A program made the translations under genes and the position numbers. A DNA stretch of 32,000 bases. Source: Candidatus Electrothrix sp. GW3-4 (GTDB taxonomy: Bacteria; Desulfobacterota; Desulfobulbia; Desulfobulbales; Desulfobulbaceae). Each line of letters opens with the position of its first letter. Positions within the stretch are counted from its first letter, which is position 1. The notes beneath the pieces were generated by a model. The model did not search any database. It was given only the letters and a program-made list of their open reading frames with translations, and had not been told where the DNA came from. The stretch is from NCBI RefSeq assembly GCF_037902255.1, contig NZ_CP147990.1, positions 3,030,001 through 3,062,000 on the forward strand, written 5' to 3'. This document shows positions 3,242-26,178 of the stretch, one piece after another.

Positions 3242-3940
3242 TTACTTCCATGTTGTATAACCCAGGGATAAGATCTTGGACCTGCCATTCGATATGTTAT
3301 TAACCCGAAACTGGCTGATCCGTCCTTCATTGGTGCGCGCACAGACGTATGAGCCCACCGGGATATCCCGGAGGGAGACGCGATCATTGCTAAAGCGTGC
3401 CCTTGAACATCCGGCATAGCCACGATTTGAGCGATCACCAACTGCTATGCGGGCGCCATTCCGTGGCACAAGATACAAACGATCACGGGTCTCGGCCTGG
3501 AACCAGATGTCGATATTATTCCCATCGCTGATTCGTCCTCGATCAAGATCAAAGGTATAGGTTTGCTGAACATCGAGTTGGCCAGTGGAAAAGGTTTCTG
3601 GTCTCGGTCCAGGACCCGGCCCTGGACCTGGGTGCCTAGGCCTGCACCGAAAGCCTCGGTTTGTGGCCCTGCAGGTATGACCTTCCGGCGCATAACGTTG
3701 AATTGATCCAGAGGAGCCATAAACGCAAAGTAAGGCCGAACGACCGCCGATTTGGGATACCTCAGTTTTGGAGAGTCGATTAACCATTGGGGTTGTCCAC
3801 CAGTCATTAGGTAGGTTGTCGGTAATCGTCCGCCGGGCTTGATTGAGCGGGCATCTGATTGTCATGTCAGCAAAGACATTGCCAACATGAAAGGAAAGAA
3901 CGGCTAGGAAAAGAACGGCTGTCACTGCAAAGGTACGCAT
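3242..3940 (-). CDS. Secreted two-domain protein with a (PG)n linker (hypothetical)
   Basis: I chose the internal ATG at 3940 because it is preceded by GGAGGA. It opens a signal peptide MRTFAVTAVLFLAVLSFHVGNVFA. Two Cys-containing domains are joined by HPGPGPGPGPRP. Confidence 0.65.
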   Translation of the reverse strand: MRTFAVTAVLFLAVLSFHVGNVFADMTIRCPLNQARRTITDNLPNDWWTTPMVNRLSKTEVSQIGGRSALLCVYGSSGSIQRYAPEGHTCRATNRGFRCRPRHPGPGPGPGPRPETFSTGQLDVQQTYTFDLDRGRISDGNNIDIWFQAETRDRLYLVPRNGARIAVGDRSNRGYAGCSRARFSNDRVSLRDIPVGSYVCARTNEGRISQFRVNNISNGRSKILSLGYTTWK

Positions 3941-4664: not shown

Positions 4665-5930
4665 TTACCAGCCTACCTCTCTCACCTTCTCCTGCCGCTG
4701 ATACATCTCAAGATGCTCTTGGAGAGCGGCCCTGATCGCAGCATCCTCATCCCTGAGCCGCTCAAGGGCCTGCTGCTGGGTGGCAATGGCCTCCTCCCAT
4801 CTCCCTGCTTCTGCATAGGCAGCAGCCAGAGTATCTATATACGTTGCCTCATTCCATCCATCCTTTTCGCAGGCGCGTAAAGCCAACTCAACAGCCTTGG
4901 CACCATTGCGGACCGCAGGGTCTGGGTTGGTTGCCAAGGTCCAGGCCACTGCATTGATGGCAGGGACATATCCCTGGCCTGCTGATGTTCTTATCAATGA
5001 TCGCCCCTCCTCCTTGTGCTCCTCATATTGCAGAAAAAAATCACCGTACAGGTACTGTGCTTCAGGGTTGCCTGCCTCGGCCTGTTCTTGTAACTGGACA
5101 AATTCAACAACCTCATGCCGTGCGCGCCATTGTTCAGACCAGGGCATATAGGTCACTGAGAGGATGGTCATGGCGACCAGGAGAACCAACACCGTACTCC
5201 AGGCCAGCACAGAGGAACGGACAACAAAGACCATGCCCACACAGAGCCCGAAGAGCAGGCCAGCAATATGGGCCCCATTGGCGATGTTCAACACCTTAAA
5301 GAAGGTCAGGACAAGGCAGAGCACCAGCCAGCCCAGCAGCCATTGCATTATCCTTGTATTAAAGATGGTCCGGTACTGCGGGTCTACGCGCCGGGCCACT
5401 ATCCCGAACCCGAACATGGCATAGACCACCCCGGAGAAGCCAATACCTGTCTGGCCGGAGAACAAGAGCTGCCCCCCAGAGCTAACAATAGCAGCAGCCA
5501 GGATAAAAAGCAGGTACTTCCTGCGCCCCATACCTGGTTCGAGTATGCCTCCGAAGTCCTTTGTCCACCACATATTAAAGAGGATATGCCAAAAGTCAAA
5601 ATGGACAAAGGCGGCCGTGACCAACCCCCAGACAGCCCCGGTCCAGATCCGGAATCCTCTGGGAGCCACGGTCGTCACGACGGCTGTGTACTGTGGCCAG
5701 TCCTTGGCAAGGTTCAGGTAGACCCACAGGCCTGTGCAGAGGCAAATCACTGCATAGGTTATCCATGGCCGTCCCTGGTGCTCGGGAGCAGCCCCTGCTG
5801 GTGCAGGGACGGAAAAAGGGGGGAGGGCAGTGCGTGATGATGGGGTGATGGCCATAGCAAGGATGTTTTGATAAGTATGGGTCGTGTTGCTGCATGATGC
5901 TGCTGTGCAGGATAAGGACAGGGTCTGCAA
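4665..5930 (-). CDS. Rhomboid-family intramembrane serine protease with C-terminal Sel1/TPR-like repeats
   Basis: Rhomboid motifs are WHILFNMWW (H..N), GFSGVVYAMFG (GxSG catalytic Ser) and AHIAGLLFG (catalytic His). The C-terminal soluble region has GNPEAQYLYG and AAAYAEAGRWEEA repeat signatures. The start is uncertain; an alternative ATG lies at 5855. Confidence 0.85.
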   Translation of the reverse strand: MQTLSLSCTAASCSNTTHTYQNILAMAITPSSRTALPPFSVPAPAGAAPEHQGRPWITYAVICLCTGLWVYLNLAKDWPQYTAVVTTVAPRGFRIWTGAVWGLVTAAFVHFDFWHILFNMWWTKDFGGILEPGMGRRKYLLFILAAAIVSSGGQLLFSGQTGIGFSGVVYAMFGFGIVARRVDPQYRTIFNTRIMQWLLGWLVLCLVLTFFKVLNIANGAHIAGLLFGLCVGMVFVVRSSVLAWSTVLVLLVAMTILSVTYMPWSEQWRARHEVVEFVQLQEQAEAGNPEAQYLYGDFFLQYEEHKEEGRSLIRTSAGQGYVPAINAVAWTLATNPDPAVRNGAKAVELALRACEKDGWNEATYIDTLAAAYAEAGRWEEAIATQQQALERLRDEDAAIRAALQEHLEMYQRQEKVREVGW

Positions 5931-7515: not shown

Positions 7516-8775
7516 ATGAGAAAAGCAACAAGAAAGACCCTAAGGCGACTCTTGACCATGGCCTGTCTCGGCCTGCTTGCCTGGCAGCAGACCGCCTGTG
7601 CCAAGAACCCTGACAACCAGCTAGAGCGCCCGACCTGCGATATGTCCTCTTTCATGGTCCTGGGCGACTCCATCGCCTTCGGCTATATGGCTGGCTACAC
7701 CGGAGCGGATGGCGACCCACTGCCCCAGGTCAGTCCAGAATTGGTCGTCCACGCCTGGCCCAAGCTGGTTGCTGACCAAGCCGGGGTGGAGATGGGCCTG
7801 ACCTTTTACACGAACACACCAGACAACCTGTCCGTGCCCGGGTACGCCTTAAACGATATGACAGTCCCCTACTCCAGCCTGCTGGCCGCGAATGAGGTTA
7901 CCAAATATGTCCTGGGCGGCTATGCTGCCATCTCTGGAGAGGACCCATCGCCACTCCAGGTCCTCTTGACAGAGAACCCCAGTACCGCAGCAGTCATGAT
8001 CGGCAATAACGATATCCTGGGTGCAGCCATCTATGCCAACTCGGCCTTAAAAACACCGGTGAACGCCTTCACGGCCATGTACAGCAATCTGGTTGCAGAG
8101 CTGGCCGCTGCTCCAGACAGAGCAGTGGTGACGGCAACCATCCCTGATGTCTCTGCTATCCCCTTTCTGCTCTCTGCACCCCAGGCCTTTGACGGGGAGG
8201 AGATCCCGGCAGGCATAGCCAGCAATGAAGACGGGACAGCCTATGCCATCCAGGAGAGCGACTATATCACCCTGCAAGGGATGGAGAAACTCAAGCACAG
8301 TCTCCCCCTGATCAAATGCCCTGGTTCAGCAACACCTTCACTGGCCTGTGTTGGCGATATCCTGACGGAGGATGAGCTTGAGGAGATCAGTGCCCACACA
8401 GAGGCCTTTAATAACGCCATCAGAGCGATTGCTGACCACTATGATAATGTCGCGATTATGGCCTTTGACAAACTCTTTCGCCAACTGAGCAGGCATGGGA
8501 TTGTTATTCAGGGCAGGAAGTATACCCTGGAATATGATGGCGGTCTGATCAGCAAAGACGGTATCCACCCAACCAAATTGGGGCATGGCGTGATCGCCAA
8601 CAAGATCATCCAGACCCTGAACAGCAGGTTTGGCGCTGACATCCCTAAGCTGGTACTCAATACCCTGGCTGCTGAGGAGGAACTGGCAGAAGGGAGTCTT
8701 CCCCTGCCCGCCTCATTCGACAGCCAGGCCTTTGAACATGCCCGCAAGATGTTCCGTAAGAATGACAGAGAATAA
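7516..8775 (+). CDS. SGNH/GDSL-family hydrolase lipoprotein
   Basis: SD AAGGAG precedes the start. The signal peptide has a lipobox (WQQTAC). Block I is VLGDSIAFGY (GDS) and block V is DGIHPTKLGH (DxxH). Confidence 0.85.
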   Translation: MRKATRKTLRRLLTMACLGLLAWQQTACAKNPDNQLERPTCDMSSFMVLGDSIAFGYMAGYTGADGDPLPQVSPELVVHAWPKLVADQAGVEMGLTFYTNTPDNLSVPGYALNDMTVPYSSLLAANEVTKYVLGGYAAISGEDPSPLQVLLTENPSTAAVMIGNNDILGAAIYANSALKTPVNAFTAMYSNLVAELAAAPDRAVVTATIPDVSAIPFLLSAPQAFDGEEIPAGIASNEDGTAYAIQESDYITLQGMEKLKHSLPLIKCPGSATPSLACVGDILTEDELEEISAHTEAFNNAIRAIADHYDNVAIMAFDKLFRQLSRHGIVIQGRKYTLEYDGGLISKDGIHPTKLGHGVIANKIIQTLNSRFGADIPKLVLNTLAAEEELAEGSLPLPASFDSQAFEHARKMFRKNDRE

Positions 8776-20483: not shown

Positions 20484-20939
20484 ATGCCCGAGCAGACGTT
20501 GATGGAACAGCTTGCTGCAGTACTGAATGTAGAAATCATCTCCCCGATGGAGGGCAACGAAGCCCAGGGACTGCATAAGGCGTTGCCCGGTTATCAGGCA
20601 ATTGTGGATGATGCGGCCCGTTTCGTTCAGGAGCACGGCGAGGCCCTTCATCTGGCCCCTTCTGTCCTTGCCAATCTTGTGGAAGGGTTAGCTGAGGTCA
20701 AGCGGCTTGAACCGGCTGACCGCGCGTTGGAAAAATTACAGCAGTCGGTCTATCACCAACGCCTGCGGGCCACGGACAGGTGCATGGAGGGGCTTTACGA
20801 CACCACCCGTCGTATCCGGGACTTTTCCGAGGCGTATCCTGAGCTTGCTGAGAAAGGGAAGTTTCTTCTTGATTTCATGAAGGTGTTTAAGCCGGGAAGG
20901 AAGAAGGAGAAGAGTGGGGTTGGGGAGAGTAAAGGATAG
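20484..20939 (+). CDS. Hypothetical protein (151 aa, helical, Lys-rich C-terminus)
   Basis: Strong SD AAGGAGG 6 nt upstream of the ATG. Composition resembles the core genome. No family recognised. Confidence 0.7.
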   Translation: MPEQTLMEQLAAVLNVEIISPMEGNEAQGLHKALPGYQAIVDDAARFVQEHGEALHLAPSVLANLVEGLAEVKRLEPADRALEKLQQSVYHQRLRATDRCMEGLYDTTRRIRDFSEAYPELAEKGKFLLDFMKVFKPGRKKEKSGVGESKG

Positions 20940-20964
20940 GGACGGAAAGTACGGTGAATTATCT

Positions 20965-20996
20965 CCGGCAATAATTCCTTGGGGAATTGTTGCCGG
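20965..20996 (+). terminator. Hairpin after gene 20484..20939
   Basis: CCGGCAATAATTCC-TTGG-GGAATTGTTGCCGG forms a 14-bp stem with one mismatch. Only a short T run follows. Confidence 0.45.
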
Positions 20997-21292
20997 GGAG
21001 GTTTGGATCAGTAACCACGGTCTGTAGTCCGCATGACTGTGCGCTTTGAAAAAGAAATGCGATACCGGTGGATTTTCTTTCAATGTTATTCTATAGTTTA
21101 CTTTTTGTCTTTAGCACGATCTAACGTTCTTACCGTTTAAATGTTAATTCAATAGTATAGGAATTTTCATTTTTTCACCTTGATATCATTCATGTTTTTT
21201 TGAAGCCTTGGGCATTCGCTGTTTCAAGTCGTGAGCATGTCGGGGGACTAAAAACCCGCCCGTAGGGCGCTAAGTTCAGCTTTAAGAAGTAT

Positions 21293-21405
21293 GGTAGTCC
21301 TGCAACGAGGCGATGACGCACGATTCCGAATCTCTGGTCTTATACGGTTTTTGGAGTTTGGAACCCATTGTGAAAAATCCACCATCATCTCAATGCAGGA
21401 CTACC
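21293..21405. repeat. 113-bp element with 12-bp terminal inverted repeats and 8-bp direct flanks (MITE-like, or a structured RNA)
   Basis: AGAAGTAT|GGTAGTCCTGCA ... TGCAGGACTACC|AGAAGTAT, read directly. It ends 39 nt upstream of the DUF262 start. Confidence 0.5.
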
Positions 21406-21444
21406 AGAAGTATAACTATGAATATTGATACTAGGGGTTGATTG

Positions 21445-21746
21445 ATGAACGAATTTAAATCACTTGTTGTTGGTACAACGAATACTGAAACTGTAGATAT
21501 TGAGGGCCTTCTAAAAAGATTTGATAGGAATGAGTATAATATTCCTGATTATCAGCGTGACTCAGAGCAATGGGACGAAGTAAAAAAATCTCTTTTTATT
21601 GAATCAATAATAAATAATTTTACGGTTCCCCCTATAATTGTATGTCCTGATTATACAGATGGTGATGAAAAATTTGAACTTGTTGATGGGCAGCAGAGAT
21701 TAACAACATTACTTGATTTTAAAAATGATAATTTTCGACTATGCAA
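21445..21746 (+). pseudogene. DUF262 (ParB-like nuclease, GmrSD N-domain type) protein, 5' fragment, interrupted by an IS
   Basis: IPDYQRDSEQWDEVKKSLFIESI and the ELVDGQQRLTTL (DGQQR) motifs are present. The true reading frame is broken at 21746 by the IS end. The ORF-track tail (NPHSAYPLSISRI) is IS-derived sequence. Confidence 0.85.
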
Positions 21747-21765
21747 CCCACATTCAGCATACCCT

Positions 21766-22380
21766 CTATCCATTTCCAGAATATAATTTTTCATATCTCC
21801 CACCCAACAGCTTCAGCAGACGCAAATGATGTTCATTTAAATTCAGGACCAGCTGTTGCATTCCGCCGACAAGCAGCAGGTGAATTCCTGAAAAAAACTG
21901 AAATACCCAACGAGCAGTAGGGTTAGGGGCAGGTTTTCCTTTCTGGTTGGGAAATGTTTCATTATTTATTTCGAGCGCTTGTCTGATGCGATATTCCAAC
22001 GCGGCGTACACCAGGAGGCAAAGCGTCATAACCATCATCAGGGCCATGATACGTTTTCGGGATTTTAAAAAAAGCGTTGAAGCCATAAACATAGGATCTT
22101 TGAGGAAACGAAAACCCCGTTCAACCTTTTGCTGATCTTTGTACACTTTCAAGAGTTCCTCGTCGGACAATTCTTCGCAGTCCAACTGATTCGTTGCAAG
22201 AATAAAACAGCTTTTTCGTTCCAACAATCGGGTTCTCTCCTGAAGCAGGGAGGCTGGGTTGCCTTCAATGCGGTAAACATAAAAGTCCGGTTTCTTGCCC
22301 TTGGCTGGCCGTCCTTTGCCCTTATGGCGAGGTAAAGCAACAACACGAGCGTCATGAATTGAGAGTATTTTCAGCTTTTT
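21766..22380 (-). CDS. IS1634-family DDE transposase, C-terminal part (the -1 frame)
   Basis: This frame is open from 22380 and reads KKLKILSIHDARVVALPRHKGKGRPAKGKK...FILATNQLD...YKDQQKVERGFRFLKDP. It is contiguous in sense with frame A if one A is skipped. ORF-track ORF 21766..22227 is its TTG-initiated tail. Confidence 0.8.
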   Translation of the reverse strand, partial: KKLKILSIHDARVVALPRHKGKGRPAKGKKPDFYVYRIEGNPASLLQERTRLLERKSCFILATNQLDCEELSDEELLKVYKDQQKVERGFRFLKDPMFMASTLFLKSRKRIMALMMVMTLCLLVYAALEYRIRQALEINNETFPNQKGKPAPNPTARWVFQFFSGIHLLLVGGMQQLVLNLNEHHLRLLKLLGGRYEKLYSGNG

Positions 22381-23408
22381 TCAAAACGGGACAGTGCTTT
22401 CAATGCATCGGCCTCGCAGGCAAAATCCTGTTTGCACAATTTATCGAATTGCTTGGATTCATTTGTGCTCAGCTTGAGGCATTTTTTGTTTACGGTCTTG
22501 CGTCCCCGTTGATATGCTTCAGGCGAATAGACAACCAACCAGCGCTGCCTGACATCGCCATAAACTACCCCGAGACTGCGAGATGCTGCTTTTTCAGGAT
22601 CCTGCATCAGATTTGAAGCTACTTCATGGATGATCTCCTGGGACAGATTCAATGTCTCCGGTACACGGGAAATCCACAATATCATGCTCAGTTCTTTTAA
22701 TGTTTGCGCTGTATAGAGCGCACTATCCGCAACCAGATATTCCAGGCTGAAATCGTTTTTCATCTGATCAATATGCGCTTGCACTGTTTTCCGAAAATCT
22801 GTTTTATCGCTACTGTTACCACTTAACGGCTTCATCAGAAGCGGGATGCCAGCCTGTCGTTCGCAAATGAGCTGCAACACGATCTGGTTCAGATCCGGAC
22901 GATGATCACGGCTGTAGCCTTTTGTGATCCGAATAACACCTTCTTCCTCTTCTGATCCGTTGGCTGGATAGCGACCGTCGGTATGAAAACTCGTTGAATC
23001 CAAGTGACCAAAACGTGCCAGCAGCCCTAGACGACCAATTGCCCTAGCTGCAAGCTGCGAATATAACTCTTCGGGATTATGCTCGTAAATCACTTCTAAG
23101 GCCCGGCCCAAAACAGTATCGTTCAGGTGCTGGGCCTCAATGCCTTCTCCGATGAGTCGATCTACCGGTTTATCCTGGAAAAAATGCGGGGTCAGATACA
23201 ATGCCCGATTCGCAAAGCCCAACCCGTTAAGAACCATTGCCTTAACTGCCTGACCAACTGAGACAACTCGCTTTTCTTTATCCTGATGAATCAGACTGTC
23301 AATCAGCTCCCCAAGTCCGAGTTCGTCATACATACCCGCGACTAGGCCCAAGTGATTGAGGAGTTTACTTGAGCATTCCTGTGGTAAAATCGTTGTGTTG
23401 TTTTCCAT
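22371..23408 (-). CDS. IS1634-family DDE transposase, N-terminal part (frame A)
   Basis: 345 aa. N-terminal LNHLGLVAGMYDELGLGELID (DUF4277-like), then HLDSTSF...GYSRDHRPDLNQIVL, typical of IS1634/IS4 transposases. It stops at a TGA immediately after an A6G run. Confidence 0.85.
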   Translation of the reverse strand: MENNTTILPQECSSKLLNHLGLVAGMYDELGLGELIDSLIHQDKEKRVVSVGQAVKAMVLNGLGFANRALYLTPHFFQDKPVDRLIGEGIEAQHLNDTVLGRALEVIYEHNPEELYSQLAARAIGRLGLLARFGHLDSTSFHTDGRYPANGSEEEEGVIRITKGYSRDHRPDLNQIVLQLICERQAGIPLLMKPLSGNSSDKTDFRKTVQAHIDQMKNDFSLEYLVADSALYTAQTLKELSMILWISRVPETLNLSQEIIHEVASNLMQDPEKAASRSLGVVYGDVRQRWLVVYSPEAYQRGRKTVNKKCLKLSTNESKQFDKLCKQDFACEADALKALSRFEKS

Positions 23409-23495
23409 ACCTGCTGCCTGGTTGATTTATTAAATGTCTTTTTGAGGCAGCAGGTTATAAAATATTTTTTTATGTGTCAACGTGCGGAATGTGGG

Positions 23496-24432
23496 ATGCA
23501 AAGAAGAACTACTCGAATATGCCGACAATGTCAGAGAATTAATACAAAATAAAAAATTCAGTGATTTGCATGATAACATTAAAGATAAAATATTAAATTA
23601 CAAAATAAATATTATAAAGCTACCTCATTCTTTATTTAAAAATCTCGACTTGAAGCTGGAGATTTTCAGAAGAATAAATGAAACTGGCGTTCCATTAAGT
23701 GCTCAAGATTTACGTTTAGCTACTTTTTCTGACTCTAATAGAGTTACCTTTTTAAGGCTTGCTGGGATCTACGATCCTAAAAAGAAAGGTCCAACTCGAA
23801 TGATAAATAATGCTAAAGAAAAACGTAATATTGATTATCCATGGAGTAAAGATTTTAGAAAAAGTTGGCATTCATGGTGGAAAGAGTCTGTATACGCTAC
23901 AGGCCAAAACGCCTCAGAGATGTTTTTGTTTTTTGTTATAGCTAAAGATATCAATTCCATTGAAAATATTCTGGATTCCGAGAAGTCAGTCAAAGAACTA
24001 AAGTTAAAATACAATAAAACTATCGATTCGGTTCTGAATATTTATTGCGCCAGACTACAGGCTGAAGATAGGGCAAATCTTGTTAAGGTTAAAACTCTTC
24101 CATCATTAGATAATTTTAAATCTTGGTTTGATCAGTTTCAGAGATGGTTTCATTTTATTAAAAGCAGCAAAGTTCCTTTGATACAAGCAAAATCAAGGAT
24201 CAAGATTGCTTTGTTTATTGCCGCTGCTTCTGATATTTGGAAATCACCGGACGATGTTACTGATTCTCAGTGGAATCACATCGAGATCCTTCTTCTTCAA
24301 GGTCAATCAAGGATCAAATCATATTTTAATGGTTTTGTTTTAGCCACACCGAGAGGGAAATGGCCTGCACAAGCAAAACAAACAACTGATATTAAAAGAT
24401 TATGTGAGTTGATAAAAGACGATGAATTTTAA
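23496..24432 (+). pseudogene. DUF262 protein, 3' fragment
   Basis: It continues the interrupted frame (..FRL|CKEELLEYADNV..) and contains EIFRRINETGVPLSAQDLRLA, typical of DUF262. Removing the IS and one TSD copy gives one in-frame ORF of about 411 aa. Confidence 0.85.
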
Positions 24433-24451
24433 TTAAAGCAGACTGAATATT

Positions 24452-24832
24452 ATGGCTGATGCCCTTATGACTCGAACATTTCCAACCATATGGAAATGTT
24501 CTTTTTTTCGTCAATCCCTTTCTAAAACTGGTAGAAATTATTATGAATGCCCGATATGTAAAAAACATTTTGACCATACTCAGCTAGATTGTTTGTTTGG
24601 TGATCACATCTGGCCATATTCGCTAATGGGTGAGACGTCGAAGGAGAACTACCAGTTGTTGTGTGGGGCGTGTAATTCAAGAAAAAAAGATTTTGTTAAT
24701 AATGAGGTAAGGAAAATTTTAGGAGATGGCTCTTTCCGTGGAATGGTCCTTCAATACCTAACGAATCATATAGACAGGATCAATGTACCTCATGATATGA
24801 AATTGGAGGATTATATATCTCGCAAACAATAA
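24452..24832 (+). CDS. Small HNH (His-Me finger) endonuclease
   Basis: CPICKK...GDHIWPYSLMGETSKENYQLLCGACNSRKKD gives a Cys pair, a DH catalytic His, N...N, and a second Cys pair. It starts 20 nt after the DUF262 stop and is AT-rich like its neighbour. Confidence 0.8.
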   Translation: MADALMTRTFPTIWKCSFFRQSLSKTGRNYYECPICKKHFDHTQLDCLFGDHIWPYSLMGETSKENYQLLCGACNSRKKDFVNNEVRKILGDGSFRGMVLQYLTNHIDRINVPHDMKLEDYISRKQ

Positions 24833-24919
24833 GGGACGGTCCCTTGATTTCCTTTTACAAACATCCACCCAACAAAAATAGGGGACGTTCCCCGTTAAAA
24901 AATCAAGATAGAAGACAGC

Positions 24920-25363
24920 ATGAAAAGAAAAAAGCAACGATCGAAAAAGAAAAATACTGCTCAAGCGAAGCTTATAAAAAAAATGCGGGCTTCTGGCAAA
25001 AAGGTTGCTGTAAATCCAAAAGGTATAGAAAGGATGTCAGAGGTAATAGAAAATTTTGCAGAACCTCTTTTAGCAGATTGTAGAAGCGATGATGATATTA
25101 AAAAAGCCATACAATTTGCGGTGATAGTATGGAATCTGTCAATGCTCCCTAAAGACCAGCAAGACAAGAAAATCCAGGAGCTTGTCGATACTTTATCCAC
25201 GCCCAGTAATACTGATCAAAGCAATCAGGCAAAACTTTATATTAACTCGTTAATCACTCGAAAAAAGGAGATGTTTCCACACATTCAAAGAACTGTCATT
25301 GATTATCAATTTTCAGGAGCTGGTTCAAATCTTCGTCTTGATATTGCGTCTAAAGATCGATAA
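24920..25363 (+). CDS. Hypothetical protein with a highly basic N-terminus (147 aa)
   Basis: MKRKKQRSKKKN leader, then MSEVIENFAEPLL...AIQFAVIVWNLSMLP. AT-rich island composition. No family assigned with confidence. Confidence 0.6.
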   Translation: MKRKKQRSKKKNTAQAKLIKKMRASGKKVAVNPKGIERMSEVIENFAEPLLADCRSDDDIKKAIQFAVIVWNLSMLPKDQQDKKIQELVDTLSTPSNTDQSNQAKLYINSLITRKKEMFPHIQRTVIDYQFSGAGSNLRLDIASKDR

Positions 25364-25437
25364 GATACCCAAAAAATAAGCAACGTGATTACTTACCCAT
25401 CCGTCCCAGCTCATCTATTAATACATAAAAAAATAAC

Positions 25438-26145
25438 ATGTTGTCCCAAAAACACCTTTTAAACCAGCACCCACCTCAGGGCAAACTTGAAGTAAAGGAA
25501 CTCAATATCACATATGAAGGTATTGAGACAAAATGGACAAGAATGACACCGAAGTCATTAAGAAAAAAAGTTACACAAATTCATGAATACACGAAGAGTG
25601 ATCCCAAAAGAGCAATAAATGAAATAGCAAAAATATACCTGCGACACAGAGAGCTACCAGTTCTTAATAATTATTTGTGTTTAAGTTATGAAGCACTAGG
25701 CGACATCGATAGTGTTGAAAAAATAGCAGTTAGAAATTACAGATCATTTCCAAGGTATCTCCTTGCAAAAACAAATTACGCTTCCATTTGTCTGCGCAAA
25801 GGAGAACTTGATAAAATCAAAGAAATATTTGAACATAAATCAGACCTTCAGTCACTTTACCCTGAGAGAAAAGTCTTTCATTATACAGAGTTTCTCGCCT
25901 TCATGAATATCTGGGCCGTATATTTTTATAAAACCGGAGAGAAAAAGGCGGCAATAGCCTGTTATAACTCCATGAAAATAGTGGATGCAGAACACCCTAT
26001 TACCCGGTCTACAAAAATCTTAATACGCCACACCTGGTTATTTTGGCTCATGGGAAAAATCTTTGGCAAAGAACGATTTGATAAAAAAATTGATGAAGCT
26101 TTACAAGCAAAACAAACGCCTTCGAACCATCAAGAAAAACCCTGA
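25438..26145 (+). CDS. Hypothetical helical-repeat (TPR-like) protein (235 aa)
   Basis: Repeated helix-pair pattern (LNNYLCLSYEALGDIDSVEKIA, AKTNYASICLRKGELDKIKEIF, NIWAVYFYKTGEKKAAIACYNSM). AT-rich island composition. Confidence 0.6.
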   Translation: MLSQKHLLNQHPPQGKLEVKELNITYEGIETKWTRMTPKSLRKKVTQIHEYTKSDPKRAINEIAKIYLRHRELPVLNNYLCLSYEALGDIDSVEKIAVRNYRSFPRYLLAKTNYASICLRKGELDKIKEIFEHKSDLQSLYPERKVFHYTEFLAFMNIWAVYFYKTGEKKAAIACYNSMKIVDAEHPITRSTKILIRHTWLFWLMGKIFGKERFDKKIDEALQAKQTPSNHQEKP

Positions 26146-26178
26146 CAAATCGTTTCTTTATTTTATTTATACGCCGTT

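Follow-up and report, generated by a model that had tools for sequence, protein, structure and literature searches.

Genes and features of the locus

We analysed a 32,000-nt stretch of the genome of the cable bacterium Candidatus Electrothrix sp. GW3-4 (contig NZ_CP147990.1, positions 3,030,001 to 3,062,000; hereafter the window), with emphasis on two adjacent genes upstream of fabD. Gene A encodes a DUF262 protein and is interrupted by an insertion sequence (IS), and gene B encodes a small, stand-alone HNH endonuclease (predicted). Two further open reading frames (ORFs), ORF3 and ORF4, lie between gene B and fabD. An earlier note on this DNA, made without database searches, had regarded the four genes as one AT-rich island carrying an uncharacterised, "split GmrSD-like" defence architecture of two to four genes. 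The coordinates of all features are given in Table 1.

Table 1. Features identified in and around the DUF262-HNH gene pair (positions in the window)
Feature	Coordinates	Strand	Remarks
Left junction	20940..21421	.	AT-rich, non-coding; GC 0.42; without counterpart in any related locus fetched
Cassette start	21422..21444	+	23 nt 5′ of the DUF262 start codon; homology to the L130/L131 cassettes begins here
DUF262 (ParB/Srx-like NTPase), 5′ fragment	21445..21744	+	Gene A, codons 1-100; YQRDSEQW and DGQQR motifs
IS1634-family insertion sequence, 1755 bp	21745..23499	-	Between codons 100/101 of gene A
Transposase, C-terminal 153 aa	21766..22227	-	DDE_Tnp_1; IS1634 profile positions 359-480; other frame
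Transposase, N-terminal 345 aa	22371..23408	-	DUF4277; IS1634 profile positions 4-318; stop just past the A6 run
DUF262, 3′ fragment	23500..24432	+	Gene A, codons 101-410; FRRIN motif; all-helical C-terminal NsnA-like (ParBDB-type) domain
HNH endonuclease (predicted), 126 aa	24452..24832	+	Gene B; starts 19 nt after the DUF262 stop
Terminator-like hairpin AAGGGACGGTCCCTT	24830..24846	+	GC-rich; overlaps the HNH stop codon; marks the end of the two-gene unit
ORF3, 147 aa	24920..25363	+	Basic N-terminus; Electrothrix lineage gene, not in the module
ORF4, 235 aa	25438..26145	+	Kept across Candidatus Electrothrix directly 5′ of fabD; not in the module

The DUF262 protein (gene A)

When the IS and one copy of TGC are removed, the two fragments of gene A rejoin in frame to give an uninterrupted protein of 410 aa (411 aa from a TTG at 21442), in agreement with the DUF262 gene of about 411 aa with a DGQQR motif that had been read from the sequence. 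This protein matched Pfam GmrSD_N with an E-value of 5.7e-28, and Q37/R38/W43, D81-R85 and F156...N160 were invariant in a family alignment of 30 sequences. Among the PADLOC models the best match by far was NsnA of the Menshen system (2.1e-37; residues 13-347, profile positions 47-323 of 385). PD-T4-2_A was matched at 2.9e-15 over residues 27-177, and the GmrSD-type models HEC-06 and Orf5 at about 1e-5 over the first ~80-110 residues only.

The AlphaFold2 (AF2) model of gene A, with a predicted local distance difference test score of 92.5, has a ParB/Srx-like alpha/beta N-terminal domain extending to about residue 175, followed by an all-helical C-terminal domain. Its best match in the PDB was BrxU (7p9k, E = 5.9e-4, probability 0.98), and ParB N-terminal domains came next. 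Since the match to NsnA spans much of the helical domain, the C-terminal region represents an NsnA-type ParBDB domain, described as DNA-binding and as common to DndB, GmrSD and SspE (Li et al., PMC12065111). The description of this region as one of unknown fold is thus superseded, as it aligns with the PADLOC NsnA model up to residue 347.

At E ≤ 1e-5 the gene A family comprises 614 clusters, from Thermodesulfobacteriota, Proteobacteria, Cyanobacteria and Planctomycetota. No natural fusion to an HNH domain was found among the 120 closest DUF262 homologues, of which the long ones have N-terminal extensions instead. Two of these, P0032 (504 aa, Methylobacter) and P0054 (500 aa), carry an extension of about 100 aa (residues ~1-110) that is winged-helix-like, …LRESLGWGEEKYFRVRQHLIEKGLV…, and that is reminiscent of NsnA-N, the optional sensor domains found in type II Menshen (PMC12065111).

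The stand-alone HNH protein (gene B)

Gene B matched Pfam HNH (PF01844) at 1.2e-10 and HNH_5 (PF14279) at 7.8e-10, which confirms the separate 126-aa HNH nuclease with two Cys pairs, 19 nt behind the DUF262 gene. C33, C36, D51, H52, N66, C71, C74 and N75 are invariant in its family, and the protein possesses a beta-beta-alpha-Me core with the catalytic His and Asn and two CxxC pairs as zinc ligands. The zinc finger is preceded by an N-terminal peptide, R-x-F-P-x-x-W-K-x-x-x-F-R, that is kept family-wide, and a helical tail forms the C-terminus. The best matches of the AF2 model of gene B were the Gme HNH nickase 4h9d, the Cas9 HNH, Hpy99I and Cap5; a sequence search of the PDB was marginal and gave eukaryotic C2H2 fingers, with 4h9d at 0.09. 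No match to DUF1524 was found in gene A or gene B at E ≤ 0.1 (Pfam).

Within codons 1-17 of gene B there is a perfect inverted repeat of 11 bp with a T7 run behind it (24474-24501, + strand; predicted -14.7 kcal/mol). We considered this hairpin as an attenuator and dropped the idea, as it is not kept in the closest homologues, at loci L130 and L134; it is therefore probably incidental. In L130 the called HNH is a 69-aa C-terminal piece (8001-8210), and tblastn aligns residues 7-123 without a break (7845-8195). The start in L130 is probably mis-called, and public databases may therefore miss some of these small HNH partners.

Conservation of the pair across loci

We fetched 80 metagenome loci with a profile of the family-specific C-terminal domain of gene A. 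Patterns for the full-length family, [VI]DGQQRL[TSA]T and FRRINE[GA]G[VT], were too generic and gave distant DUF262 proteins with 25-40% identity over the N-terminal domain. An HNH homologue was detected by tblastn in 70 of the 80 loci, and a search based on ORFs and hidden Markov models (HMMs) placed the HNH directly 3′ of the DUF262 gene, overlapping it or with a gap of less than ~40 nt, in 66 of them, these being the loci with calls for both ORFs. Of the ten loci without an HNH, six (L075, L077, L086, L111, L127 and L128) have less than 300 nt of downstream sequence, in another (L125) the DUF262 gene is degraded, and three are seemingly genuine exceptions. In L106 an integrase gene abuts the DUF262 gene in place of the HNH. 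The pair was also found in L001, L130/L131 and L134, as well as on the Desulfohalobium retbaense plasmid pDRET01, where RefSeq lists a "DUF262 domain-containing protein" and an "HNH endonuclease signature motif containing protein".

Among 33 pairs, the pairwise identities between the DUF262 proteins correlate with those between their HNH partners (r = 0.885), and none of 500 label permutations reached this value. DUF262 relatives of more than 42% identity are paired with HNH proteins of 125-150 aa, and those of 30-38% with HNH proteins of about 90 aa. The proposed co-occurrence therefore holds for the HNH, which tracks the DUF262 subfamily, but not for ORF3 and ORF4. Genes A and B very probably function as a two-gene unit.

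The surroundings of the pair are variable. The 145 neighbouring ORFs of 36 loci gave matches to 111 Pfam families. None of these families was present in four or more ORFs, and N6_N4_Mtase was seen once; the pair thus has neither a third component nor a cognate methyltransferase. PADLOC matches among the neighbours were sporadic and included type I and type II restriction-modification (R-M) systems, IetAS and a reverse transcriptase. The split module was found neither in 2.9 M viral contigs of IMG/VR nor in 50,697 phage genomes of INPHARED.

In seven loci (L065, L078, L099, L120, L121, L125 and L129) the DUF262 copies are cut to 51-280 aa away from contig ends, and truncated metagenome copies often keep just a piece of the HNH. 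The cassette seems to decay frequently; errors of metagenome assembly are possible too.

Single-chain relatives of the pair

A search with the gene B profile against 1.84 billion representatives gave 1501 matches at E ≤ 1e-3. Of the ten longest top matches tested, seven were single-chain proteins with the order DUF262-linker-HNH and a length of 367-465 aa. The existence of such fusions is evidence of the Rosetta-stone type that genes A and B act together. Four of the fusions are full-length members of PADLOC model PDLC03418 ("REase_II", "Type II restriction enzyme"; 1e-93 to 1e-108), a model that the two window proteins match at its two ends, gene A at 16-160 (7.8e-9) and gene B at 326-369 (5.5e-4). 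When gene A is compared with the fusions, only the DUF262 region (residues ~20-180) aligns.

In several fusions the HNH alignment reaches the R-x-F segment preceding the zinc finger. This suggests that the N-terminal peptide of gene B is a remnant of an interdomain linker or interface. No methyltransferase was found nearby in the one fused example locus examined.

A few phages encode such fusions, among them Flavobacterium phage vB_FspS_laban6-1 (11442-12578) and the gut phage MT835503.1 (1711-2823). The annotation of these proteins varies between "HNH endonuclease" and "DUF262 domain-containing protein".

The insertion sequence within gene A

The terminal inverted repeats of the IS are 18 bp long (TGCAACCCACATTCAGCA / TGCATCCCACATTCCGCA) and, within the window, are confined to the two ends of the element. 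The duplicated target is TGC (21742-21744 / 23497-23499) or TGCA. After excision the junction peptide reads FRLCKEELLEY, as in the intact homologue in L134, which indicates that the insertion is clean and probably recent.

The two transposase fragments matched NF033559 (IS1634 family) at 4.1e-66 and 2.5e-32. The element thus resembles IS1634-family elements in its NF033559 transposase with DUF4277 and DDE_Tnp_1 domains and in its terminal inverted repeats, but differs from them in that the transposase frame is broken and the target duplication is apparently only 3-4 bp long. The frameshift lies at an A6 run on the minus strand (22376-22381, within 22371-22385), and one more A restores the frame, …RFEKKLKILSIHDARVV…. 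It could reflect a genuine inactivating mutation, slippage, or an error in sequencing the homopolymer. Short-read contigs of the same organism end at the IS, suggesting that the element is multicopy.

Because the IS splits gene A at codon 100/101, the system almost certainly does not function in Electrothrix sp. GW3-4. Although the HNH ORF is undamaged, polarity probably silences it. The annotation of GW3-4 should accordingly be corrected to two genes plus an IS, with gene A a pseudogene and with ORF3 and ORF4 as Electrothrix lineage genes.

Composition and boundaries of the cassette

The GC content over 21001-26000 is 0.31-0.39 in 500-nt windows and 0.50-0.60 in the flanks, so the AT-rich drop between GC-normal flanks had been seen correctly; the IS lifts the values to 0.45-0.48 at 22001-23500. 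Individually, the GC content is 0.31/0.33 for the DUF262 fragments, 0.37 for the HNH, and 0.36 each for ORF3 and ORF4, against 0.54 for fabD, 0.51 for ffh and 0.55 for the 151-aa gene on the left (20484..20939). The AT-rich stretch is followed on its 3′ side by fabD, ffh, rpsP, rimM and trmD.

With the IS removed, blastn showed that the L130/L131 cassettes are 81% and the L134 cassette 78% identical to the window, and that the match is confined to 21422..24813. Homology to the ORF3-ORF4-fabD block of Electrothrix starts only at 24876. The closest cassettes lie in unrelated contexts, one with an ABC substrate-binding protein and RadA, another with MoxR/DUF58. Three other Electrothrix genomes (L135, L136 and L137) lack the DUF262-HNH pair at the corresponding, syntenic position. 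By these comparisons the acquired unit is a 1.64-kb two-gene cassette, 21422..24813 with the IS removed. The deviating GC content, together with the absence from the syntenic site of related genomes, points to horizontal acquisition of this unit only.

Neither an integrase nor flanking repeats were found around the cassette in the window. Scans of the window for tRNA and Rfam families gave no match, so the window has no tRNA-linked integration site. What lies 5′ of the conserved block varies among the Electrothrix genomes: a 2061-aa DEAD/ResIII/Cas3-like_C + AAA_11/AAA_12 helicase in L136 (609-6794), an rve integrase and an FtsK/DndE-like gene in L137 (79-3923), and a DDE transposase, ORF4 paralogues and uncharacterised genes in L135 (2194-7692). 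With content that differs so between genomes, the site acts as a hot spot of variation within Electrothrix.

The non-coding stretch at the left junction may be remnant island DNA or the promoter region of the cassette. It contains a terminator-like hairpin on the minus strand at 21257-21269. At the other end, a second short GC-rich hairpin, GGGGACGTTCCCC, lies between the HNH stop codon and ORF3 (24881-24893). The segment that holds it, 24876-24916, has two further copies of 88-90% identity in E. scaldis (L135) and may be a small repeated intergenic element.

ORF3 and ORF4

In two Electrothrix genomes (L136 and L137), ORF3 (69% amino acid identity) and ORF4 (84%) lie directly 5′ of fabD-ffh-rpsP, without a DUF262-HNH pair beside them. 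In E. scaldis (L135, CP138355.1), ORF4 is directly 5′ of fabD, again with no DUF262-HNH there. Both ORFs are as AT-rich (GC 0.36) in these cassette-free genomes as in the window. No homologue of either was found in ~85 other loci with the DUF262-HNH pair. ORF3 and ORF4, being absent with the pair elsewhere and present in genomes without it, were ruled out as components of the system, and the view of four genes as one module falls with them. Of the two- to four-gene architecture suggested in the earlier note, the two-gene pair is strongly kept, but the extension to ORF3 and ORF4 is not.

Searches of ORF3 and ORF4 against Pfam, PADLOC, NCBIfam and PHROG gave nothing significant. Both ORFs exist as the earlier note described them, ORF3 with its basic N-terminus, but the tetratricopeptide repeat (TPR)-like nature ascribed to ORF4 is not borne out by any Pfam TPR match; the TPR label comes only from NCBI, which calls one ORF4 orthologue a "tetratricopeptide repeat protein".

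E. scaldis L135 has extra partial copies of ORF4 at 5261-5673 and 3467-3689, beside a DDE transposase (compared with 25445-26073 of the window). One of these is 96% identical in nucleotide sequence to ORF4 of the window, whereas the syntenic copy 5′ of fabD is only 80% identical. This suggests that members of this AT-rich, TPR-annotated family have undergone recent exchange or gene conversion among Electrothrix species.

Proposed function and alternative explanations

We consider it fairly likely that the cassette is a defence nuclease module with a restriction-like, anti-phage or anti-plasmid role. That it acts specifically as a modification-dependent restriction system is a more tentative proposal, which we hold to be somewhat less probable than its opposite. 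DUF262 is known as a sensor/NTPase (nucleoside triphosphatase) that regulates a His-Me nuclease (PMC12065111, PMC10952713, PMC11411939, PMC12137116). If it works like GmrSD, BrxU and SspE, and as proposed for NsnA, gene A would bind DNA through its DUF262 and ParBDB domains. It would recognise something that marks DNA as foreign, the likeliest candidate being a base modification missing in the host, and binding and hydrolysis of NTP by gene A would serve as the switch. The N-terminal R-x-F-P-x-x-W-K...F-R peptide of gene B corresponds to the segment before the HNH in the single-chain DUF262-HNH proteins, and it probably docks gene B onto gene A. Recognition and NTP cycling by gene A would then license the docked HNH, as the effector, to cut or nick. 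Since no methyltransferase accompanies the pair, self-protection would follow from the absence of the recognised mark, as in type IV logic.

Several points weigh against this proposal. The defence role rests on domain content, patchy distribution and analogy to other systems, and the neighbourhoods are not strongly enriched in defence genes, as many neighbours are housekeeping genes. Gene A is only weakly similar to the solved enzymes of the GmrSD family (7p9k was matched at E = 0.0038 by profile, and its fold at a template modelling score of ~0.2). The nearest sensor family, NsnA, sits in Menshen, for which an ATPase transducer and a toxin are proposed rather than simple restriction (PMC12065111). 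The PADLOC label "Type II restriction enzyme", read literally, implies modification-independent cleavage and a methyltransferase.

The pair might instead be a minimal Menshen-like sensor-effector of the abortive kind, in which a phage DNA or protein cue frees the HNH to act on any DNA, the host's included, so that the cell is killed or arrested. NsnA is indeed the strongest defence-model match of gene A, winged helix-turn-helix-like extensions are present in P0032 and P0054 as described for NsnA-N (PMC12065111), and no methyltransferase comes with the pair. Yet no ABC ATPase of the NsnB type and no inPIN effector of the NsnC type stands beside the pair in the 36 loci surveyed, and the fused relatives look like restriction enzymes. 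Targeted and indiscriminate cleavage are not separable by sequence alone, and we regard the abortive mode as unlikely, with perhaps one chance in several. Lower still is the probability of a selfish mobile nuclease cassette, homing-endonuclease-like or addictive, whose HNH would aid its own spread or maintenance while the DUF262 protein acts as targeting or immunity factor and defence is incidental. The unit of 1.64 kb has sharp edges, occurs in unrelated contexts even among relatives that are ~83-84% identical in the DUF262 protein, and often appears decayed or truncated away from contig ends; moreover, HNH domains are common in homing endonucleases (PHROG matches). Against it stand the lack of flanking repeats or a conserved insertion site, the absence of the module from the viral contigs and phage genomes searched, and the presence of two co-evolving proteins with an NTPase, which is atypical for homing endonucleases. 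Strict toxin-antitoxin dependence would also fit poorly with a gene A that is disrupted by an IS next to an intact HNH, though polarity could silence the latter.

It is quite improbable that the pair is the restriction half of a Type II-like R-M system with its methyltransferase encoded elsewhere. The match of the fused DUF262-HNH relatives to the PADLOC "Type II restriction enzyme" model speaks for it, but a DNA methylase was found in just one of the 145 neighbouring ORFs and none near the example fused locus. In addition, the cassette is transferred with just its two genes, and the arrival of a methylation-sensitive nuclease on its own would kill the recipient. Least credible of all, and refuted here, is that the AT-rich stretch of 21.0-26.15 kb is one four-gene accessory island. 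The uniformly low GC content of all four genes had made this plausible, but it does not explain the distribution of ORF3 and ORF4, which are absent with the pair elsewhere and present 5′ of fabD without it, nor the split of nucleotide homology at 24813/24876 and the terminator-like hairpin after the HNH.

In a more far-reaching reading, to which we give slightly less than an even chance, the pair would be a distinct, widespread and unnamed two-component immune system, a minimal "sensor plus detachable nuclease" relative of Menshen and GmrSD. Its HNH would be recruited through the N-terminal peptide, and its specificity would be other than the cytosine-modification sensing of the known GmrSD enzymes. 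How DUF262 sensors (GmrSD, BrxU, SspE, Menshen, Dazbog and PD-T4-2) are coupled to their various effectors is poorly understood. The pair is about the simplest natural case, with one sensor protein and one HNH of 90-150 aa, and both fused and split forms exist. It thus offers a tractable system for studying the licensing of a nuclease in trans by a ParB-like NTPase, and it is also a candidate for the catalogues of defence systems, as PADLOC v2 sees only a partial match to NsnA.

Comparison with known systems

The pair as a whole matched no PADLOC v2 system, and in the literature we found no DUF262/ParBDB protein described with a small, separate PF01844 HNH as its partner; the architecture was thus rightly called uncharacterised. 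The earlier note had made its proposal depend on confirmation of the two domains, on their co-occurrence in other genomes and on a step in base composition. The domains were confirmed by HMM, DUF262 and HNH co-occur, and the GC step is present.

All experimentally characterised DUF262 restriction systems that we found in the literature use a DUF1524 in the same chain as a DUF262. DUF1524 is fused to DUF262 in Eco94GmrSD, BrxU, SspE and HEC-06, and in the two-protein systems TgvAB, GrwAB and GmrS1/GmrSD2; two-protein versions of the GmrSD family are known (PMC11411939, PMC12137116, PMC12373910). The window pair shares with this family a DUF262 sensor/NTPase and a His-Me-finger nuclease, the lack of a methyltransferase, and BrxU as the best match among solved structures. 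Its N-terminal DUF262 domain carries the QR, DGQQR and FxxxN motifs of GmrSD. However, the DUF1524 (DHIYP-type) nuclease, normally in the same polypeptide, is lacking, and a separate PF01844 zinc-finger HNH is found in its place. The distinction from canonical GmrSD/BrxU drawn in the earlier note, with no DUF1524 and a separate classical HNH, therefore stands. The term "split GmrSD-like" is only loosely apt, as the nearest sensor is NsnA and the nearest fusions are DUF262-HNH (PF01844), not DUF262-DUF1524.

Menshen, in which NsnA is proposed to be coupled to an ABC ATPase transducer and a polymorphic toxin effector (PMC12065111), is similar in its ParB-DUF262 domain followed by a helical ParBDB-type domain. 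Both domains are present in gene A, and some members of its family share the DNA-binding-like N-terminal extensions. The partners differ, being the NsnB ABC ATPase and the NsnC inPIN-toxin in Menshen and a small HNH here. In the window, as in the 66 metagenome loci with both ORFs called, the DUF262 gene is followed by an HNH gene, no ATPase recurs among the 145 neighbouring ORFs, and no third gene that could correspond to the inPIN + toxin protein NsnC is kept. PD-T4-2 pairs a DUF262 protein with a HEPN protein (PMC10952713). It is likewise a two-gene system led by a DUF262 protein, but the partner is a HEPN protein, not an HNH, and only the DUF262 core aligns; no neighbouring protein in the window matched PD-T4-2_B or HEPN (Pfam, PADLOC).

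The PDLC03418 fusions have the same N-terminal DUF262 motifs and a C-terminal classical CxxC...CxxC HNH. They differ in being one chain of ~370-400 aa with a shorter middle, while here there are two genes, and gene A has a longer NsnA-like helical domain (residues ~180-410). The fusions occur in a few phages, whereas the split form was not found in the phage collections. Accordingly, the window pair gives no end-to-end single-chain match to PDLC03418, and, although the Type II label implies a methyltransferase, only one DNA methylase occurs among the 145 neighbouring ORFs of the split family and none beside the window pair. Although it thus falls outside each of these families, the pair clearly belongs to the same functional kind as GmrSD, Menshen, PD-T4-2 and PDLC03418. 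As judged from the sequences, its sensor is closest to NsnA of Menshen rather than to GmrSD, and its HNH is of the classical PF01844 type rather than DUF1524.

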